Shown here: in pieces, positions 7,442 to 53,820 of the stretch
Position numbering within the stretch: the first letter of the stretch is position 1
How the letters are laid out: each line of letters starts with the position of its first letter
Assembly: GCA_963929915.1 (NCBI GenBank)
Contig: CAWVJY010000008.1
Span: forward strand, 226,705-290,704
Direction of reading: 5' to 3'
From: Bacillota bacterium
Lineage (GTDB): Bacteria > Bacillota > Clostridia > TANB77 > CAG-508
Length of the DNA stretch: 64,000 nucleotides
Notes under the pieces: model-generated
What the model was told of the DNA's origin: nothing
What the model saw: the letters and a program-made list of their open reading frames with translations, nothing else
Databases searched by the model: none
Made by a program: the position numbers and the translations under genes

Positions 7442-8782
7442 ATGGAATTACTAAAAAGAAAAGTAGATAAATATTTAGAAGAATGGAAGGAAAGTCCAGA
7501 TAGAAAACCTTTAATTATAAAAGGTGCACGTCAAGTAGGAAAAACAGAATCCATTAGAAACTTTGCTAAGAATAATTATAAAAGTGTTATTGAAATTAAT
7601 TTTGCTCTTCAAAAACAATATAAAGATATTTTTGATGATGGATTTGAAGTAGATACAATTATAAAAAATATTTCATTAAGAAATCCAAACTATGAGTTTA
7701 TACCAGGGAATACTTTAATATTTTTTGATGAATTACAGGATTGTATTAATTGTGCAACATCCTTAAAATCATTTAGAGAAGATGGAAGATATGATATTAT
7801 TTGCTCAGGTTCGCTTATGGAAATTAATTATAATGAAATTGAATCAAATAGTGTAGGAAATAAAGAAGATTACGAAATGAATTCAATGGATTTTGAAGAA
7901 TTTCTTTGGGCAAAAGGGTATAGGGAAGAACAAATAGAAGACTTATATGTACATATGAAAAATTTAACACCACTTTCTAACACAGAACTTTCCATTATGT
8001 TTGAGAACTTTAAAGAATATATGATAGTAGGAGGAATGCCTGCTATTGTTAACTCTTTTGTAAAACAGAATAATTATAGTGGAACATTAAAAATGCAAAA
8101 ACAAATTCTTCAAGATTATGAAGAAGATATTACTAAATATGCAGGGGGATTAGACCATGCAAAAATTTTAAATGTGTATCGTAAAATACCTATATTTTTA
8201 GGAAATGAAAATAAAAAATTTCAAATTTCAAAAATCGAAACAGGTGCCAGAAATCGTGAATATATAGGAACAATAGACTGGTTAAGAGATAGTGGAATTA
8301 TTAATATTTGTTATTGTTTAGAACAGCCAGAACTTCCACTAGGTGGAAACTTTAATCCAGATAATTATCGTATTTACTTTAGAGATACAGGATTATTAAT
8401 TGGTTCACTAGACGAAGAAGCGCAAGAGGATTTAAGAAACAACAAAAATTTTAATACCTATAAAGGGGCTATTTATGAAAATATTATAGGAGATATGCTA
8501 GTAAAACAAGGATATCAACTATATTTTTATAAAAACGAAAAAGCTACAATAGAAATGGATTTTTTTGTTAGAGATAAAGACTCTCTTATTCCAGTTGAAG
8601 TAAAAGCCAATGATGGCGCTACCGTTTCCTTAAGAAACTTAATTGAAAGTGAAAAATATAAAGATATTAAGTATGGAATAAAGCTAGGATATAAAAATAT
8701 AGGATTTAATGGACAATTTTATACATTTCCGTATTTTTTAACTTTCCTTCTAAAAAGATATTTAAGAGAAAAAACGATATAA
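7442..8782 (+). CDS. AAA-family ATPase (ATPase plus DUF4143-like architecture)
   Basis: Walker A GARQVGKT and Walker B-like LIFFDELQ. Size and layout are typical of orphan AAA/DUF4143 ATPases. Confidence 0.75.
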   Translation: MELLKRKVDKYLEEWKESPDRKPLIIKGARQVGKTESIRNFAKNNYKSVIEINFALQKQYKDIFDDGFEVDTIIKNISLRNPNYEFIPGNTLIFFDELQDCINCATSLKSFREDGRYDIICSGSLMEINYNEIESNSVGNKEDYEMNSMDFEEFLWAKGYREEQIEDLYVHMKNLTPLSNTELSIMFENFKEYMIVGGMPAIVNSFVKQNNYSGTLKMQKQILQDYEEDITKYAGGLDHAKILNVYRKIPIFLGNENKKFQISKIETGARNREYIGTIDWLRDSGIINICYCLEQPELPLGGNFNPDNYRIYFRDTGLLIGSLDEEAQEDLRNNKNFNTYKGAIYENIIGDMLVKQGYQLYFYKNEKATIEMDFFVRDKDSLIPVEVKANDGATVSLRNLIESEKYKDIKYGIKLGYKNIGFNGQFYTFPYFLTFLLKRYLREKTI

Positions 8783-14485: not shown

Positions 14486-14606
14486 TTTCTATACCTCCCT
14501 ATCAAAAAAATATTTTAGTTCTTTCGTATGGTATATAGTATTCTTATTTTTTAAAAGTGTTACAAAGCTAAATTGTAAAAGTAAAATATAATTAGAAAAA
14601 GCAAAG

Positions 14607-14685
14607 GAATGTCCCAACTGGCTGAAAATCAACCAATAGGGACGTTCTTTTTTGGTCGAAAATCAGCCAAAAAGGACCGTCCCTC
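14607..14685 (-). repeat. REP-family variant (same termini as the RAYT-flanking REPs, longer internal hairpin)
   Basis: Starts GAATGTCCCAACTG and ends GACCGTCCC (REP3 has GAAGTGTCCCAACTG...GAACCGTCCC). The interior is an imperfect palindrome, GGCTGAAAATCAACCAA / TTGGTCGAAAATCAGCC. Confidence 0.6.
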
Positions 14686-25138: not shown

Positions 25139-26692
25139 ATGGATAAAAAGGAAAAAATACTTAAAAAGCTTCATATAACAGATTATACAAATCGCTTAGA
25201 GAAGGTTTTGGAAAAAAAGAAATTTTCTTTCGATACCAAAAATCTTCTTTTAAGCATGTTCTATAAAATAGAAAATGGATATCAAGATTATCAAAAAACA
25301 AAAGTACAAGTAGAAAATAAAGAAGATTTTTTTGAAAAAATACTCCAAATCATTGATAAAAAATGTGAAGAAATTATTACCACCAAAGATGTTTTAGTAG
25401 ATGAAAAAAAGCAAAAAGTAGATTTTATGGTAGATAAAGAAAAAGGAAAAATCGTAGCTTTAGGAAATGAATTTGTTTTATTAAACGCTATTTTAGTACT
25501 AGGAGAAAAAGAAATTTGTTTTCCAGAAGAAGAAAAGCTTTTACAAACACCATTTACAGCCTTTTTTAATTTAGGACTAAGAATGCATGAAACAGAAGTA
25601 ATTCGAGATTTTAATGGCTGGTCATGGGATATTGTTACAAAAGATATTACCAATATTCCTGTAAATCTTATCTTCCAAAGTTTTCTATATTTACTAGGGC
25701 AAGATTTTATGGCTCAATGGATAAATAATAAGAGTGAATTAGCAGATTATTTTATGTTAGCTGCTGAGAACATGAAACAAAACTTTGGAGAAGAAAGAAG
25801 TAAAAAAATAGTATCTCTATTTTGTAAATTAGTGATAGAGATTGTGGCAGAACAGGATGAAACACAAGCAACTTTATGGAAAAAGTTAAAAAAGGAAAAT
25901 AAAATAGAATTAGAAAAATTAAGTAATAAGCCAAAATTTCTAGAAGAAATTACCAAAGAAAAAAAGGAAATCACCAAAAAAATTGAAAAAATTGATAAAA
26001 TCATGAATAATAAGATTCTTTTACAACAGGAGTATGAAGAAAGAAATGAAAAATTACCTAATAAAGAGAAGATTTTTAGTATTAGGCATTTAACCAATCG
26101 TTTAGTAGAAGAAAGACAAGAACTAGTTGAGAAAATGAAACAAAGCAACAATTTAATTGATCCAAAAGAATATGTTGCTCGTAAGGAAAAAGTAGAAAAA
26201 AGGGTAGAGTTTTTAGATAGTTTAGATTTAGAAAATAAAACAGATAGAAGAGAAGCGTTATTACAACTATGTATACTATTCTTAGAATGTTTTGAAATCA
26301 AAACCATTAAAGCACAAAAAAAGGAAGAAGTCATTCATTATTTTTACGAATTAAGATATTATCGCTTTTTACCTTTTGAAGAAGAAGTGAAACTAAAAGA
26401 AATAGAAAAATTAAATCATATTTTTGAAAAAGAAATATCATTATTAATAGAAAAAGCACAAAAAATGGCAATTATTGATGAAGTTACGGCAGATAAAGAA
26501 ATTAATCAAAAAATCATTGGAAACTTATTTAATAGTAAATTAATTGATTTAAATCATTTAATTATTGAAACAAAAGTAGAAGAAGGCAAATTATATGCAG
26601 AATATTATGATACTAATATTTTAGAAAATGTTGTAGAAGTACAAAGCAATAGAACGGTGAAACTAAAGAAAAAGACAAAATTGTTTCTTTAG
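25139..26692 (+). CDS. Hypothetical K/E-rich protein (517 aa)
   Basis: Long ORF with an SD AAAGGTGG. No motif recognised. The stop codon abuts REP1. Confidence 0.6.
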   Translation: MDKKEKILKKLHITDYTNRLEKVLEKKKFSFDTKNLLLSMFYKIENGYQDYQKTKVQVENKEDFFEKILQIIDKKCEEIITTKDVLVDEKKQKVDFMVDKEKGKIVALGNEFVLLNAILVLGEKEICFPEEEKLLQTPFTAFFNLGLRMHETEVIRDFNGWSWDIVTKDITNIPVNLIFQSFLYLLGQDFMAQWINNKSELADYFMLAAENMKQNFGEERSKKIVSLFCKLVIEIVAEQDETQATLWKKLKKENKIELEKLSNKPKFLEEITKEKKEITKKIEKIDKIMNNKILLQQEYEERNEKLPNKEKIFSIRHLTNRLVEERQELVEKMKQSNNLIDPKEYVARKEKVEKRVEFLDSLDLENKTDRREALLQLCILFLECFEIKTIKAQKKEEVIHYFYELRYYRFLPFEEEVKLKEIEKLNHIFEKEISLLIEKAQKMAIIDEVTADKEINQKIIGNLFNSKLIDLNHLIIETKVEEGKLYAEYYDTNILENVVEVQSNRTVKLKKKTKLFL

Positions 26693-26736
26693 GGACGGTT
26701 CTCAGTGGCCCCATTTGGGGTCACTTGGGACACTTC
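26692..26736 (+). repeat. REP element copy 1 (orientation A)
   Basis: GGGACGGTTCTCAGTGGCCCCATTTGGGGTCACTTGGGACACTTC, with the central hairpin AGTGGCCCC/GGGGTCACT. Confidence 0.85.
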
Positions 26737-28605: not shown

Positions 28606-30585
28606 ATGAAAAATAAATATTATAATAATGCTATTATTGGGGGAAAAAACATTACAGCAAGTTATAGTAAAACAGGAGAATTGTTAAGGGTTATGTATCC
28701 AAATCCAGATTTTAGAAGTTGGATAGATGAATTTTTAACTGGTGTTAAAATTAATGATTCTGGAATGATTTATTTACATGAAGATTGCAATAATCAATAT
28801 CATCAATATTATACTGAAAATACCAATATTTTAAAAACTGAAATTTTAAATACCTATTTTCAATTACAAATTAAGCAAACCGATTTTGCCTTACTAAAAA
28901 ATAGCATATTGGTAAAAAAGTATGAATTTGAAAACAAAAATAATATTGATTTAAAAGTAAATTTTTTAGTACATAGTAAACTCTTATCAGATACCAATAA
29001 TATGGTAGGAAGTGAAGTAAAATATAATACACTAATTCAATATTGCCACGACTATTGTCTTTACCTTTTTTCACCATCTTCTTTATTAAGTTATCAATTA
29101 AATGATACTAAAGAAAATATTGGAAGTGGAGAAATTTATGATAAAGACTATATAGGTATGTCTTGTGATTCTAGTATTAGTTATGATATTGGAATTCTAA
29201 AACCAGGAGAAAAGAAAGAATTAGTGCTTTATTTGTATTTTAAAAATAATACGACAGCAGATATAGGAACAGAAAAAATAAGTAGTAAACAATTAGAAGA
29301 ACAGTTACTAAAAGAAATAGCCGAAATAAAAAAGATAGATGTACAAAAAGAAGAACAAGATGTAGAAAAATACTGGAAAAAATATGTAAAAGAACATTTA
29401 ACCATTCCTTTAAAACCAGAAACAAATACTTTTCATAAAAAATGGAACCAAATTTATCAAAGAAGCATTTTATTATTTCCTTTATTAATCAACCAAGAAA
29501 CAGGGGGAATTAGTGCAACTGTAGAAGTTGATGAAAATATGACACAATGTGGAAGATATGCCTATTGCTGGCCAAGAGATGCAGTATGGATTACCAAAGC
29601 ATTAGATTTGCTAAAAATGACAAAGGAAACGGAAAAATTTTATAAAATCTTCTGCAAAGAAACCCAAAGTAAAAATGGAATGTGGGAACAAAGATTTTAT
29701 ACAGATGGAAAATTAGCACCTTGTTGGGGATATCAAATTGATGAAACAGCCAGTGTTATTTATGGAGTTTATGAACATTATAAGGTAGTAAAAGATGCTA
29801 AATTTTTAAAAGACACTTATAAAATGTGTGAAAATGCTGCAAAGTTTTTAGGAATTTATTTAGATAATGTGTTAGGCACAAAAGATGAATCAGATGTGGT
29901 AAAAAAAGAAATAGAAGAAACTTACCATACAGAGGGAAGAAATAAATTGCCAGTTAGTTATGATTTATGGGAAATGCATGAAGGAGTACATTTATATTCC
30001 TTATCTGCTATTTATGCAGCCTTTGAAGCAATGAAACAAATTCATATTGTTTTAAAACCAAGTTATGAACAAAATAATCGACTAAAAGTAGAAGCAATGA
30101 ACAAACTAGAAGCCAAAATGATAAAATATCAGGAAGAAATTAAAAAGTATATACTTGCCAACTTATATGACGAAAACACTAAAACTTTTTCTAGAAACTT
30201 AAATGATAATCGTACAGATATTAGTGAACTTGGAATGATAGTACCATTTGCTTTGTTTTCTGCAAAAGAAAAAAAGGTACAAAATACTATTGAAAAAATC
30301 AATATGACATTAAGAACTTATACAGGAGGATACTTAAGATTCGAGCAAGATCATTACCGTGGTGGAACAAGTCCATGGCCAATAGCTACTTTATGGATGG
30401 CAATGTACTATCAGAAGGCTGGAGAAAGAAAAAAAGCAAAAGAATGTATCGAATTTGTTGTAAATTCTGCCAATGAACACGGCTTACTAGGTGAGCAAGT
30501 AGACAACCAAACTATGCAGCCGAATTGGGCAATTGGCTTACGGATGGGCCCATGCTATGTTTGTTTTGGGGACGGTTCTCACTGA
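28606..30585 (+). CDS. Glycoside hydrolase family 15 (glucoamylase/glucodextranase-like)
   Basis: CWPRDAVWITKAL, WEQRFYTDG, YQIDETASVIYG, DLWEMHEG, PWPIATLWMAMYY, GLLGEQV. The 3' end runs into REP2, and the expected W-AHAMFV motif is out of frame (possible indel near 30540). Confidence 0.85.
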   Translation: MKNKYYNNAIIGGKNITASYSKTGELLRVMYPNPDFRSWIDEFLTGVKINDSGMIYLHEDCNNQYHQYYTENTNILKTEILNTYFQLQIKQTDFALLKNSILVKKYEFENKNNIDLKVNFLVHSKLLSDTNNMVGSEVKYNTLIQYCHDYCLYLFSPSSLLSYQLNDTKENIGSGEIYDKDYIGMSCDSSISYDIGILKPGEKKELVLYLYFKNNTTADIGTEKISSKQLEEQLLKEIAEIKKIDVQKEEQDVEKYWKKYVKEHLTIPLKPETNTFHKKWNQIYQRSILLFPLLINQETGGISATVEVDENMTQCGRYAYCWPRDAVWITKALDLLKMTKETEKFYKIFCKETQSKNGMWEQRFYTDGKLAPCWGYQIDETASVIYGVYEHYKVVKDAKFLKDTYKMCENAAKFLGIYLDNVLGTKDESDVVKKEIEETYHTEGRNKLPVSYDLWEMHEGVHLYSLSAIYAAFEAMKQIHIVLKPSYEQNNRLKVEAMNKLEAKMIKYQEEIKKYILANLYDENTKTFSRNLNDNRTDISELGMIVPFALFSAKEKKVQNTIEKINMTLRTYTGGYLRFEQDHYRGGTSPWPIATLWMAMYYQKAGERKKAKECIEFVVNSANEHGLLGEQVDNQTMQPNWAIGLRMGPCYVCFGDGSH

Positions 30586-30613
30586 CCCCTAATGGGGCCA
30601 CTTGGGACACATC
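30569..30613 (+). repeat. REP element copy 2 (orientation A), left flank of the RAYT gene
   Basis: GGGACGGTTCTCACTGACCCCTAATGGGGCCACTTGGGACACATC. Confidence 0.85.
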
Positions 30614-30753
30614 ATATCATCTGAATTAACTCAAATGAAAAAAGAATCATAAATAATTTTAACAAGTACTTGCAAAATTATAAAAAATATGAGAAGATGT
30701 AAAAGAGAGAGAATTATAAAAAAGAGGGGCACTATCGGAGAAAGGAGGCAATT

Positions 30754-31571
30754 ATGCCTAGAAAACCAAGAGATAGGAGTCCCTCTAATTGTTACCATAT
30801 CATTACCAGAGGAATTAATAAGCAAGATATTTTCTTTGATAACAATGATAAGGCCAAACTTCTTAAAGAAATAAGTAGAACAAAAGAAAAATATGAATAT
30901 GAATTATATGCTTATGTTCTAATGCCAAATCATATTCATTTACTAATTAAAGAAAATACTCATTCGATTTCTGAAATTATGAGAAGTCTTTTGATAAGTT
31001 ATGCTGAATATATTAACAAGAAATATGATAGGATTGGATATGTCTTTCAGAATCGATTTACTAGTAGACCAGTTGAAAACGATATTTATTTTAGAAATGT
31101 GGTACGTTATATTCATTTAAACCCACAAAAAGCCGGAATTTCTATATATAGTCAATATAAATGGAGTCAGTTACCAAGATTATTGCAAAGACAATAATAG
31201 TCTGGTTGATGTAGAAAAAGGAAAAAAATAGATTTGAGAATATAAACGGAAACTTTGAAGAATCTTTTGAAAAATTTCATAATGAACAACTAAATGATAG
31301 TATAGAAGAAGAAATTATGGAGTATGAAATAAAAAGTGTGTTGGAAGATGAGGATTTATATAGAATTTTGAAAGAAAAAATAGGAGAACAAGAAATACAT
31401 AATCTTCACCGATATCAAAAAAAATATCGAAATAAAGTACTGATGCAGATATTGAAAATAAAAGGTACAAATTGTGCTCAAATTTCAAGAGTGACAGGAA
31501 TTAGTAAAAAACTAATTAAGAAAGCTAGAGAACAATTTTTAAAGAATAAACCGAAAATTAAAATAGTATAA
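30754..31571 (+). pseudogene. REP-associated Y1/HUH (IS200-like, RAYT-type) transposase with a C-terminal HTH; two frameshifts as written
   Basis: YHIITRG, the HUH motif PNHIHLL, FQNRFTS and the catalytic-Tyr region RYIHLNP. The frame moves +1 near 31170 (continuing YQDYCKDNNSLVDVEKGKK) and again in the A-run 31222-31228. It then joins ORF 31317-31571, which carries an HTH (GTNCAQISRVTGISKKLIKKA). Confidence 0.8.
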
Positions 31572-31595
31572 TTTGAATAGATTGGAGGAAATGGA

Positions 31596-31640
31596 GAAGT
31601 GTCCCAACTGACCCCTTTTGGGGTCACTGAGAACCGTCCC
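31596..31640 (-). repeat. REP element copy 3 (orientation B), right flank of the RAYT gene
   Basis: GAAGTGTCCCAACTGACCCCTTTTGGGGTCACTGAGAACCGTCCC, the reverse complement of the REP1/2 consensus. Confidence 0.85.
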
Positions 31641-31648
31641 CAGAAAAC

Positions 31649-33062
31649 ATGAAAGCAAAAACAATTTTTGTATGTAGTAATTGTGGATATGAATCACCAA
31701 AATGGCTAGGAAAATGCCCAGGTTGTAATGAGTGGAATAGTTTTTATGAAGAGAAATTAGCTATGCAAACAGGTTCAGGAAAACAGACAGAAAAGAAAGT
31801 AGTTACTCCTAAATCATTAAATGAAGTAGTAGGAAAAGATGCTATTCGTATCCACACTGGAATTGGAGAATTAGATAGAGTTCTAGGGGGAGGTTTAGTA
31901 AAAGGTTCTTTAGTATTAGTAGGAGGAGAACCTGGAATTGGTAAATCTTACTCTTATTTGGAACTTTGCGATAAAATGCAGGCAGAAGGAAAAGTTCTTT
32001 ATGTTTCAGGAGAAGAGTCTGCTGAACAAATAAAATTAAGGCAGATCGACTTGGAATCCACAATGACGACATTTTATTTTTAGGAGAAACTGATATTTCA
32101 CTTATAGAAAATACAATATTAGAATTAAAACCAAAATTAGTTATTATTGATTCTATTCAAACAATGTATTCTGAAGATATTTCTTCGGCGGCAGGAACAG
32201 TAAGCCAAGTTCGCGAGATTACAGCTCGTATTATGCGTATTTGCAAAGGAAATGAAATTACTACTATTATTATTGGTCATGTAACAAAAGAAGGAAATAT
32301 TGCAGGACCTAGAGTTTTAGAACATATGGTAGATACTGTACTTTATCTAGAAGGCGAAAGGTATTTTTCTTATCGAGTTTTGCGTGGCGTTAAAAATCGT
32401 TTTGGGCTCTACCAACGAAGTAGGGATGTTTGAAATGCAAAATGAGGGAATGGTAGAAATAACAAATCCTTCTTCTGTATTAATTTCAGAAAGGGAGGAT
32501 AATCCTTCAGGTTCTGTTATTATTGCAAGTATGGAGGGAACTAGACCTTTGTTAATAGAATTACAGGCATTAACGACACCGACTGTATTTGGTTTTCCGC
32601 GTAGAACAGCCAATGGAATTGATTATAACAGGCTTACTTTGTTAGTTGCAGTACTAGAAAAAAGGGCTGGACTTGCATTAAGTTCACAAGATGTGTATTT
32701 AAATGTAGTAAGTGGAATCAGAATTGTAGAACCTGCTGCAGACCTAGGCATGATTTTAGCTTGTTGTTCTAGTTTTAAAAATACTAGTATTCCTAAAAGT
32801 ACAGTTGTTATTGGAGAAGTACGGATTAACAGGAGAGGTAAGAGCAGTAAATTTAATAGAAAAAAGATTAAAAGAAGCGGAAAAATTAGGATTTAAAACT
32901 TGTATTATACCAGAAAGTAATAAAAAACTATTGAAAGATAAGTACAAGTTAGATATAATAGGGGTTAGAAATGTAAATGAGGCGATGAAAAGTAGTGGGG
33001 CTAAAGTAAAAGTTAAGAAATTTAGTGAAGTGTCCCAAGTGGCCCCATTTGGGGCTACATAG
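31649..33062 (+). CDS. radA: DNA repair protein RadA; three frameshifts as written
   Basis: Zinc ribbon CSNCGYESPKWLGKCPGCNEW, Walker A GGEPGIGKS, KNRFG, and a Lon-like C-terminal domain. The four track ORFs (31649, 32164, 32384, 32805) are consecutive pieces, with indels near 32040, 32408 and 32819. The last codons lie inside REP4. Confidence 0.85.
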
Positions 33063-33071
33063 AACCGTCCC
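33027..33071 (-). repeat. REP element copy 4 (orientation B)
   Basis: GAAGTGTCCCAAGTGGCCCCATTTGGGGCTACATAGAACCGTCCC. Confidence 0.85.
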
Positions 33072-33087
33072 TAGAAAGGAAAATGTG

Positions 33088-34144
33088 ATGATTACTGATA
33101 TTTTAAAAATGATTGCACCTGGTACTCCTATTCGTGATGGTTTAGAAAATATTCTAAAGGCAAAAACTGGTGCATTAATTGTCATAGGAGATAGTAAAGA
33201 AGTATTAGATTTAGTAGATGGTGGTTTCCAATTAAATATTGACTATACCTCCTCCAGGCTTTATGAACTTGCTAAAATGGATGGTGCAATTGTGTTAAGT
33301 AGCGATTTCAAAAAAATTCTTTATGCTAATGCACAATTAATACCACAGTCTAGTATTACTACTACAGAAACCGGTACTAGACATCGTACGGCAGAGCGTA
33401 CTGCAAAACAAACAGGAGCCCTAGTAATTAGCATTTCACAAAGAAGAAGTATTATTACTATTTTTAAAGGTAACCTCCGCTATGTTTTAGAAGATACTGC
33501 AAAAGTAATTTCCAAAGCAAACCAGGCATTACAAACAGTAGAAAAATATAAAAAGGTGTTTGATAATAAACTAAGTTTATTAAATGAATATGAGTTTAAT
33601 GATATTGTTACTTTAGAAAATGTAATTAATGCCATTCAACGTGCAGAAATGGTAATGAAAGTAGTAGAAGAGGTGCAAAGGTCTATTTACGAATTAGGAG
33701 AAGAGGGAAGACTTCTAGAAATGCAATTAGAAGAATTAGTTGGTGATTTAGAAAAAGAAGAACTTTTAATTATAAAAGATTATATTGCACCTGGTAAAAA
33801 ACGTACTGCAGAAAAAGTATTAGCAGAAATTCAAAGTTTAGAACATGATGATTTGATGGTTCTAGAAAAAAATAGCTAATCTTCTAGGATATGAAGATTT
33901 CGACAATTATGACGAAGTAGGTGTTTATACAAGAGGCTATAGAGTGCTTAGTAAAATTCCTAGAATGCCAAGTAATATTGTGGAGAATTTAGTTAAGTCA
34001 TTTAAATCTTTCCAACATATTTTGGCAGCAGATTTACAGCAATTAGATGATGTAGATGGCATTGGAGAGGTAAGAGCAAGAACCATTAAACAGTCTTTGA
34101 AACGTATGCAAGAACAATTTGTATTTGACAATTTAATGTTATAA
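33088..34144 (+). CDS. disA: DNA integrity scanning protein DisA (diadenylate cyclase); one frameshift in an A-run near 33867
   Basis: MITDILKMIAPGTPIRDGLENILKAKTGALIVIGD, the DAC motifs DGAIVL and TRHRTAER, and a C-terminal HhH (DGIGEVRARTIKQSL) in ORF 33944-34144. Confidence 0.88.
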
Positions 34145-37780: not shown

Positions 37781-37828
37781 ACATAAGTTTTTATTTTTAC
37801 ATGCATAATATGATTCTAAAATTTATTT

Positions 37829-37977
37829 TATAAAAGGAATAGAATTGTCTTTTTCAATTTTTAAAACCTTTCCCCTTTTGGACATCTGTAACTCGGCGTA
37901 AACGCCTCGAACAGCTGTCACAATGGTCGCCCACGCAAGGCTTAAAAATTTCAAAAGACAATTCTATTCCTTTTATA
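37829..37977. repeat. Hairpin-closed element B1 (25-bp perfect arms; core shared with B2)
   Basis: Arms TATAAAAGGAATAGAATTGTCTTTT (37829-37853) and AAAAGACAATTCTATTCCTTTTATA (37953-37977). The GC-richer core carries the nested stem GACATCTGT/ACAGCTGTC and the apical hairpin GGCG-TAAA-CGCC. Confidence 0.8.
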
Positions 37978-37987
37978 TTTAATACTT

Positions 37988-38075
37988 TATTACAATTATA
38001 TTACAAATATATTAAATTTATATTACAAACAAAGAACTTATTGTTTTTAGACGAAAAATGTTGTACAATAAATTA
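37988..38075 (+). promoter_or_regulatory. TATTACAA array plus putative promoter of the pilus operon
   Basis: TATTACAATTATATTACAAATATATTA is identical to the 19891 array, and there is a third TATTACAAA at 38021. It is followed by TTGTTT...TGtTGTACAAT (extended -10) about 50 bp before cpaB-like. Confidence 0.5.
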
Positions 38076-53601: not shown

Positions 53602-53820
53602 AATAAGAAACTGTTCTAAAATAGAATAAATTTATTTTAAAAAAGTATTAGGATTGTCTTTTTCAATTTTTAAAGCCTTTCCCCTTTTGGACATCTGTAC
53701 CTCGGCATAAATGCCTCGAACAGCTGTCACAATGGTCGCCCACGCAAGGCATAAAAATCTCAAAAGACAATCCTAATACTTTTATTATACATTATATATT
53801 TTTAGGACAGTTTCTTATTT
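53601..53820. terminator. Outer bidirectional terminator-type hairpin whose loop is occupied by element B2
   Basis: AAATAAGAAACTGTTCTAAAA (53601-53621) pairs with TTTTAGGACAGTTTCTTATTT (53800-53820), 20 of 21 bp. It lies between the convergent transglutaminase-like gene and murC. Confidence 0.6.
53641..53783. repeat. Hairpin-closed element B2 (copy of B1)
   Basis: Arms AAAAGTATTAGGATTGTCTTTT and AAAAGACAATCCTAATACTTTT. The core is nearly identical to B1, and the differences are compensatory. Confidence 0.8.

Follow-up and report, generated by a model that had tools for sequence, protein, structure and literature searches.

Genes and repeats of the locus

The 64,000-nucleotide (nt) stretch of Bacillota bacterium DNA analyzed here (contig CAWVJY010000008.1 of assembly GCA_963929915.1, hereafter the window) has a GC content of 27-34% and a positive GC skew throughout, and contains a gene for a Y1 transposase of the HUH type that is bracketed by inverted copies of a 45-nt repeat. 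The locus is probably a REPtron or TIRtron, that is, a single-copy, vertically inherited gene for a tyrosine transposase associated with repetitive extragenic palindromes (REPs), or RAYT, of the HUH/Y1 type with a DnaA-domain-IV-like helix-turn-helix (HTH) domain, together with box-hairpin-box repeats that would serve as its substrates. The features of the locus, including open reading frames (ORFs) next to the repeats, are as follows.

30569-30613 (+): left flanking REP or terminal inverted repeat (TIR), 2 mismatches to the consensus, GGGACGG head directed away from the RAYT gene; made up of a GGGACGGTTC box, a hairpin (CTGACCCC-TAAT-GGGGCCAC) and a TTGGGACACATC box
30724-30736 (+): G-rich box GAGGGGCACTATC, which precedes the start codon of the RAYT gene by about 20 nt
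30754-31571 (+): RAYT/TIRYT-type Y1 HUH transposase gene, 273 amino acids (aa) when repaired
30754-31167 (+): Y1 domain, with YHIITRG, HIH, RYIHLNP and WSSY
about 31218-31571 (+): DnaA-domain-IV-like helical HTH domain, the C-terminal part
31596-31640 (-): right flanking REP/TIR, 1 mismatch, inverted relative to the left copy, head outward
26692-26736 (+): solo REP, exact consensus (0 mismatches), overlapping the stop codon of a 525-aa ORF upstream of RNase J
33027-33071 (-): solo REP, 3 mismatches, in the radA-disA intergenic gap
14606-14683 (-): composite degenerate REP relative of 78 nt, intergenic, upstream of a 722-aa ORF

At up to three mismatches, the 45-nt consensus matched four places in the window and none in 100 dinucleotide-preserving shuffles. 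The inverted bracketing of the gene described in the original prediction was recovered: the two gene-flanking copies make up 50-nt arms with 86% complementarity, with gaps to the gene of 140 nt upstream and 24 nt downstream, and the right copy begins 24 nt past the RAYT stop codon and ends 8 nt ahead of the radA start. At least five further family members had also been announced for the window, a number that did not hold up. A scan of the whole window with both boxes and every GGGAC/GTCCC site found no canonical copy beyond the four, which leaves two besides the flanking pair and the one degenerate composite at 14606-14683. Along the latter, a GGGACGGTCC box is followed by a hairpin (TTTTTGG/CCAAAAA), a box in inverted orientation (GAACGTCCC), another short hairpin and finally a TTGGGACATTCC box. 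The canonical copies of the window differ among themselves at 1-3 positions and in the loop.

Stop codons are supplied by several copies. The upstream GH15 ORF takes its final codons and its stop (..FGDGSH*) from the left REP both in the window and in the sister genome MGYG-HGUT-04078 (L030), and radA runs into the 33027 copy, where TAG is the radA stop codon. Over its last approximately 15 codons (window 30540-30585; L030 1573-1620), GH15 is read in a frame that differs from that of distant orthologs (GLRMGPCYVCFGDGSH* versus ..GWAHAMF..); this altered end looks real and REP-associated, because the short-read sister genome reads likewise.

The transposase and its relatives

The ORF at 30754-31197 encodes 147 aa with the motifs YHIITRG, PNHIHLL (HUH) and RYIHLNP, and the coding sequence continues in a second frame (SYQDYC...) and then a third (NRFENING...KIKIV) to 31571. 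The Y1/HUH signature expected from the original prediction is thus present, with a Pfam Y1_Tnp match of 2.4e-16, and its catalytic residues H60/H62 (HIH) and Y119 (RYIHxNP) were invariant in 63 of 63 homologs. Against NCBIfam models, the window fragment scored 78.1 bits with REP_Tyr_transpos (cutoff 80) versus 27.2 bits with IS200 (cutoff 55), five intact homologs scored 74-80 versus 23-27 bits, and a sixth homolog, P0054, scored 51.8 bits with the former model and had no IS200 match. Full-length homologs of the repaired 273-aa protein were found at 89%, 78%, 74% and 69% identity, among 832 matches in all. The protein family is very common, since a profile search of 1.84 billion representatives returned 4,949 matches at E<=1e-30, mostly of 245-275 aa.

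Escherichia coli TnpA-REP (4ER8) was the sole significant sequence match in the PDB (E 0.016 with the single sequence, 8.7e-4 with the profile). It was also the best Foldseek match (E 1.9e-7, target TM 0.74) of the AlphaFold (AF2) model of the protein (pLDDT 91, pTM 0.82), ahead of IS608, ISDra2 and IS200 TnpA. Scores and structure thus both agreed with the earlier assignment to a RAYT-type Y1 transposase in a REPtron-like layout. The proposed C-terminal HTH was likewise found, as a domain resembling DnaA domain IV with weak, sub-threshold Pfam HTH_23/28/29 matches that all fall on the same residues.

Upstream of the gene, the G-rich box GAGGGGCACTATC is kept in the orthologous loci L030, L001 and L003, with looser G-runs in L098, L042, L072 and L110; resembling the GGGAC box, it could be a 5'-untranslated-region or operator element. 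A separate inverted repeat, GTATAGC-N17-GCTATAC, is conserved about 60-110 nt upstream of the RAYT start in the more distant orthologs L098, L072, L118 and L042, where it overlaps an extended -10-like TGCTATACT. This repeat, which is not present in that form in the window, could be a RAYT promoter or operator.

Conservation of the locus

Orthologous loci are listed below with the identity of their RAYT protein and their gene content.

L001: RAYT 69-70% identical to L030 or the window (the reference also for the loci below); FtsK, 525-aa ORF, RNase J, GH15, RAYT, radA, disA, peptidyl-prolyl isomerase (PPIase), mutS2
L003: RAYT 74-77%; (cut ORF), 304-aa ORF, RAYT, radA, disA, PPIase
L098: RAYT 42%; flanking repeats; adjoins radA
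L042: RAYT 42%; RNase J, GH15, RAYT, radA; flanking repeats
L072: RAYT 35-54% (frameshifted); RAYT locus with flanking repeats
L110: RAYT 48%; upstream genes as in the window
L112: RAYT 44%; upstream genes as in the window; gapdh downstream
L118: RAYT 46%; upstream genes as in the window; gapdh downstream

The gene order FtsK, 525-aa ORF, RNase J, GH15 and RAYT is retained down to 42-48% protein identity, and all 23 contigs read for homolog P0054, each from a different sample, gave one context (23/23). Apart from this locus, no second RAYT copy was found in the window or in 109 related loci (L001-L109). One syntenic locus across relatives and no copy elsewhere in the sampled loci are the signature of a domesticated, vertically inherited gene that is not mobile. 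In 10 of 10 orthologous loci, the RAYT gene is bracketed by inverted head-out copies of the repeat (GGGACGG outward).

The repeat family in related genomes

One genome per species was scanned with the pattern GGGACGGTTC-N20-26-TTGGGACAC, which gave at least 105 stretches. At least about 85 of these came from 22 low-GC (26-35%) metagenome-assembled genomes (MAGs), which carry the label uncultured Clostridia or Clostridium sp. and derive from the guts of humans, mice and ruminants. Matches in high-GC organisms lacked the central hairpin and were treated as chance, and no viral contig matched the pattern. Altogether, at least 110 copies were found across at least 22 low-GC Clostridia MAGs, and in each of the best-sampled MAGs they numbered at least 9-17, spread over as many as 11 separate blocks of 8 kb. 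Copies from low-GC genomes have the invariant flanks GGGACGGTTC(T) and (T)TGGGACAC, and their centre is a species-specific hairpin with the following arms.

Window and sister genome: GGCCCC / GGGGYC
L001 and CALXUZ: CACCCT / AGGGTG
CANEEJ: CCGACA / TGTCGG
CAMCQH and CANPFO: TTGGACA / TGTCCAA
Water-deer MAGs (JAGALX, JAGBDU): TTCCCA / TGGGAA
CAOJXM: TGGTCCA / TGGACCA

Among 94 distinct elements, the longest perfect stem averaged 5.98 bp versus 2.88 bp in shuffles, and 46 different complementary stems were present. Covariation was counted on length-matched sets, a mixed-length MAFFT alignment having gapped the stems and a fixed register being unsuited to 41-mers. In the 42-nt set, 92% of the cells were paired and eight pairs had changed on both sides, a result equalled by none of 500 shuffles, while slid controls reached at most 59%; in the 40-nt set, 87.5% were paired and six pairs had double changes. 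Pairing of GTTCT with GGGAC at the base of the hairpin occurred in the minimum free energy structure of 17 of the 94 elements. The left box becomes GTCCC, the perfect complement of GGGAC, in L110; units are chained as (GGGACAGGTCCC-hairpin)n in L112; and L118 has the exact GGGGACAG form. No GTAG tag was found adjoining the stem, the invariant flanks GGGACGGTTC and TTGGGACAC standing there instead, and no Rfam family matched the repeats or the locus at the gathering threshold or at E<=1.

Two further observations concern the boxes. In addition to the repeat type around its RAYT gene, L110 has a further type of box (TCAATGGGGACGGAG), found at the ends of three other genes, 3779 (+), 10277 (+) and 10450 (-); more than one repeat family may therefore coexist in one genome. 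In Bacillota bacterium Bin_1 (47% GC; L015, L084 and L095), tandem GGGACGGTTC(C/T)CTTGGGA(C/T)AC units were found whose boxes have hardly any hairpin, or none, between them, which suggests use of the motif far beyond the low-GC clade.

Arrangement and folding of the repeats

Among 121 copies, 93 were intergenic (71 between co-oriented, 13 between convergent and 9 between divergent genes), 18 lay at block edges and 10 were inside an ORF as called by a crude gene caller; the median distance past a stop codon was 37 nt. Close pairs away from the RAYT gene were heads-out in 16 of 19 cases; their spacers measured 16, 36 or 43-48 nt and were conserved within one genome (CAKPKU). These doublets of the relatives resemble REPINs or miniature inverted-repeat transposable element (MITE)-like derivatives; in the window, the only heads-out doublet is the pair around the gene. 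A rule that (+) copies lie upstream and (-) copies downstream of the gene was rejected, as it holds in the window and L001 and fails in L098.

No repeat was called as an intrinsic terminator, no T-tract was present, and a promoter/terminator scan gave results no better than shuffles. The original prediction had described a G-T wobble in the central hairpin, by which one strand would pair better than the other. Copy 26692 does have this wobble, which is also frequent in the sister genome, but the flanking copies have A-C (30569, on that strand) or A-T (31596) instead. The proposed strand difference disappeared over the 94 distinct members, which as single-stranded DNA fold equally well on the top (-5.07 kcal/mol) and bottom (-5.04 kcal/mol) strands (Wilcoxon p=0.61).

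Probable turnover of the repeats

Comparison between species revealed filled and empty sites. At the site in L030 orthologous to the 26692 copy, nothing but the left box (GGGACGGTT) remains. A copy occupies the der-plsY gap in CANPFO but not in CANEEJ, and a disA-side gap in CANEEJ but not in JAAVZN. The der-plsY case hints that the mobile unit may extend from GGGAC to GGGAC beside GA(A/T)GT. Other sites are occupied by different repeat types in different species. At the GH15 3' end, the post-RAYT site and the radA-disA site, the repeat is of the GxCCCC type in the window and of the CACCCT type in L001, and L110 has a third type at the post-RAYT and radA-disA sites (radA-disA gap copies: L001 12346 (-); L110 about 8219-8262). 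At each site, the repeat type is that of the species' own gene-flanking copies. Because independent drift would not alter several copies in the same compensated way, this pattern points to homogenization or replacement, or to repeated re-colonization, either of which would imply activity after the species split. From these sequence comparisons we infer that the repeats were probably active after that split.

Frameshifts and alternative explanations

The Y1 coding sequence proposed at 30754-31571 was confirmed as such, but not as an intact ORF, since the window has three indels relative to the intact 273-aa ortholog at the same site in L030, a genome 92.7% identical to the window over 8 kb. These are an additional C at 31168, A7 for A6 near 31222 and a missing base near 31551, accompanied by 48 substitutions. 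Between the window and L004 (contig tig00009589), a second assembly from this organism, the differences are single-base indels only, with zero substitutions. Frame changes also affect the adjoining genes (three in radA and one in disA), each frame keeping 75-92% amino-acid identity, and none occurred in the four long upstream genes FtsK, 525-aa ORF, RNase J and GH15 (22.5-30.6 kb). Together with the two main RAYT frameshifts, those of radA and disA (31649-34141) make six within 3.4 kb; the second assembly terminates near this region and is noisier still, and the cause is probably a locally poor long-read consensus, perhaps due to strain heterogeneity at the repeat-rich locus.

Such a broken gene could mean that the system is a fossil, in which the REPtron/TIRtron layout persists, the transposase is a true pseudogene and the repeats are inert relics, possibly kept for their stop codons or 3'-end hairpins. 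The two frameshifts at 31168 and about 31222 and the third indel at about 31551 would fit this explanation, as would the recurrence of both main frameshifts in the second assembly and the presence of only four canonical copies in 64 kb, differing at 1-3 positions and the loop. We nevertheless regard a fossil as unlikely. Indel-only differences between two assemblies are the signature of a noisy long-read consensus, one of the indels lies in an A7 run, and radA and disA are broken as well, yet conserved in every frame. The RAYT gene has no premature stops from substitutions, and its product is 84-96% identical to the intact ortholog in the two large frame segments and 77% identical in the 22-aa linker. 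On these grounds, we attribute the RAYT frameshifts, with about two-thirds probability, to a locally poor long-read consensus rather than to true inactivation. The original prediction had itself named a different outcome that would speak against it, an ordinary IS200/IS605 insertion sequence (IS) whose left and right ends are the repeats and which carries the gene in many copies. The Y1_Tnp domain, the IS200-like HUH and Tyr motifs, and IS608 and ISDra2 TnpA as significant structural neighbours are what such an element would have. This explanation is very improbable, however, given that the IS200 model scores 23-27 bits (cutoff 55) against 74-80 for the RAYT model, the gene occupies a single syntenic locus down to 42% identity with no second copy in the window or 109 loci, and no tnpB is adjacent. 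The repeats, moreover, are inverted and near-identical, unlike the distinct direct-strand hairpins of IS ends, and most copies are solo without the gene.

In a further alternative, the repeats are host cis-elements (terminators, mRNA stabilizers or protein-binding sites), their position around the gene is a coincidence and the Y1 protein does something unrelated. Their location mainly just past genes (median 37 nt after the stop), sometimes supplying the stop codon, would suit such a role, and the evidence for a link between protein and repeat is indirect. On the other side, the species' own repeat type brackets the gene head-out in 10 of 10 loci, even after complete repeat replacement, and neither T-tracts, terminator calls nor Rfam matches were obtained. 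The copies also show no orientation preference relative to transcription (39 same versus 32 opposite), which argues against a strand-specific role at the RNA level. We therefore consider this explanation improbable.

The REPtron/TIRtron reading has its own difficulties. Copy number is modest, with four canonical copies in 64 kb, all within 4 kb of the gene; the repeats have no GTAG tag of the kind that classical RAYTs recognize; and the homologs score slightly under the curated NCBIfam RAYT cutoff (74-80 versus 80 bits). Mobility is deduced from comparison between species, the exact ends of the element are ambiguous, and the three filled/empty cases lie in diverged intergenic DNA. In the window-type sets, the basal GTTCT/GGGAC pairing is invariant, so covariation is silent there, and the hairpins, taken one by one, are weak (-2 to -8 kcal/mol; z -0.7 to -2.6). 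Besides the missing bias relative to genes, there was none relative to the GC-skew strand (65 versus 52, p=0.27); together with the equal folding of both strands, this weighs against a strictly lagging-strand or replication-fork mode on single-stranded DNA. Finally, as the two main frameshifts recur in L004, the system could be dead in this strain.

Proposed mechanism

Under the REPtron/TIRtron reading, the substrates would be the 40-45-nt repeats, each with a 5'-GGGAC(G/A)G box, a species-specific hairpin of 5-9 bp and a (T)TGGGACAC box at the 3' end. By analogy with E. coli TnpA-REP (4ER8), the Y1 domain may bind the hairpin in single-stranded DNA. As in TnpA-REP and IS608, it may then cut at or near the invariant GGGAC boxes by means of an HUH-bound metal and Tyr119. 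Such cleavage would let repeats be excised, copied or replaced, and the DnaA-IV-like HTH domain might add recognition of the box in duplex DNA. More speculatively, GTYCY at the 5' foot of the hairpin could act as a guide by pairing with the GGGAC box, in the manner of the guide and cleavage sites of IS608.

A broader proposal, which we put forward tentatively and with less than even confidence, is that the low-GC clade of gut bacteria in the class Clostridia keeps a REPIN-RAYT-like partnership under a subclass 2.1 enzyme, in which all copies of a genome, those at orthologous intergenic sites among them, are replaced in step with the diverging enzyme and GGGAC boxes are cleavage sites read through pairing at the hairpin foot. 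If true, it would offer a matched series of enzymes and hairpins for working out RAYT specificity, and long-term vertical "replicators within genomes" would extend beyond Proteobacteria.

Relation to known systems

RAYT-like genes with long inverted repeats sharing GGGGWSAS were described by Di Nocera et al. (2013) and named TIRYT/TIRtron; some of these repeats are self-complementary, make up families of moderate abundance and are found as dimers or in clusters (PMC3733652). TIRYT was considered probably equivalent to TnpA-REP subclass 2.1 by Quentin et al. (2018), in which long proteins have Bac_DnaA_C, HTH_23 or HTH_28-like C-termini and no REP-like sequences were reported beside the genes (PMC6006769). 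Bertels et al. (2017) found Group 1 RAYTs also in Clostridia, with flanking 16-mers of about 12 copies per replicon (PMC5581495). The original prediction had stated that REP/RAYT systems are described mainly in Proteobacteria, which was overstated since RAYT-like genes in Clostridia had already been catalogued in that study. Neither this repeat family nor any REP/RAYT system of the present Clostridia was described in the literature searched.

On the features examined, the transposase appears to fit the long, HTH-bearing TIRYT or subclass 2.1 group. Shared with TIRYT/TIRtrons are a long Y1 protein with a DnaA-IV-related C-terminal HTH, inverted flanks with a GGGGWSAS-like box (GGGGACGG and TGGGACAC of the window each match at 7 of 8 positions and GGGGACAG of L118 at 8 of 8; L112 has GGGACAGG), and flanking repeats that belong to a moderately abundant dispersed family with dimers and clusters. 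In contrast to a plain long TIR, each of the present repeats is a short REP-like unit in which a covarying hairpin lies between two direct GGGAC boxes. The host belongs to an uncultured clade of low-GC gut Clostridia, and the locus is conserved to 42% identity.

Classical REP/RAYT systems likewise have a single-copy, vertically inherited Y1 gene between inverted, dispersed extragenic palindromes, and their TnpA-REP (4ER8) is the best match in both sequence and structure; the short-spacer inverted doublets of some relatives recall the REPINs of Groups 2 and 3. The present system differs in having GGGAC boxes on both sides rather than a GTAG tag, a protein about 110 aa longer with an HTH domain and scores slightly under the NCBIfam equivalog cutoff, copies in the tens rather than hundreds as far as sampled, and a Firmicute rather than proteobacterial host. 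With IS200/IS605 elements (IS608, ISDra2), it shares the HUH/Y1 catalytic fold, hairpin-bearing DNA partners and, speculatively, the guide/cleavage-site logic (GTYCY against GGGAC). Unlike those elements, it is neither multi-copy nor mobile as a unit, its ends are inverted and alike, tnpB is missing, the IS200 score is far below the cutoff and orientation relative to replication is unbiased.

The system is real and of a kind already catalogued (TIRYT/subclass 2.1), in a lineage for which it had not previously been described. What is new is an explicit box-hairpin-box unit as the putative substrate of a RAYT with an HTH domain, together with the gene's deep synteny and an apparently concerted repeat replacement in a Firmicute clade. 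What is known of REP/RAYT systems comes almost exclusively from Proteobacteria with GTAG-tagged REPs, and the DNA partners of the large HTH-bearing branch are poorly defined, one survey having found none. The box-hairpin-box unit provides a testable definition of the substrate and many natural enzyme/substrate pairs, and evidence of concerted repeat turnover is added from a Firmicute lineage, the known picture of such systems remaining unchanged. For annotation, the repeats deserve attention as suppliers of stop codons and occupants of tight operon gaps (radA-disA), and annotating the gene as an IS200 transposase should be avoided.

Other observations in the window

A second repeat family was present in two copies in the window (37819-37991 and 53628-53800) and also in the sister genome, with members at about 2324-2538 of L018 and about 4242-4408 of L085. 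Its near-invariant, GC-rich core of about 85 nt (CCTTTCCCCTTTTGGACATCTGTAACTCGGCG..CGCCTCGAACAGCTGTCACAATGGTCGCCCACGCAAGGC) is surrounded by inverted repeats of 22-36 nt (AATTGTCTTTTTCAATTTTTAAAA / TTAAAAATTTCAAAAGACAATT) and matches no Rfam family; the family could represent a MITE or else a small RNA not described before. At 45034-47480 of the window, four neighbouring ORF starts have a common N-terminus, MENASKALIIAG.., followed by a hydrophobic stretch, and look like a paralogous pilin-like or pseudopilin-like gene cluster.

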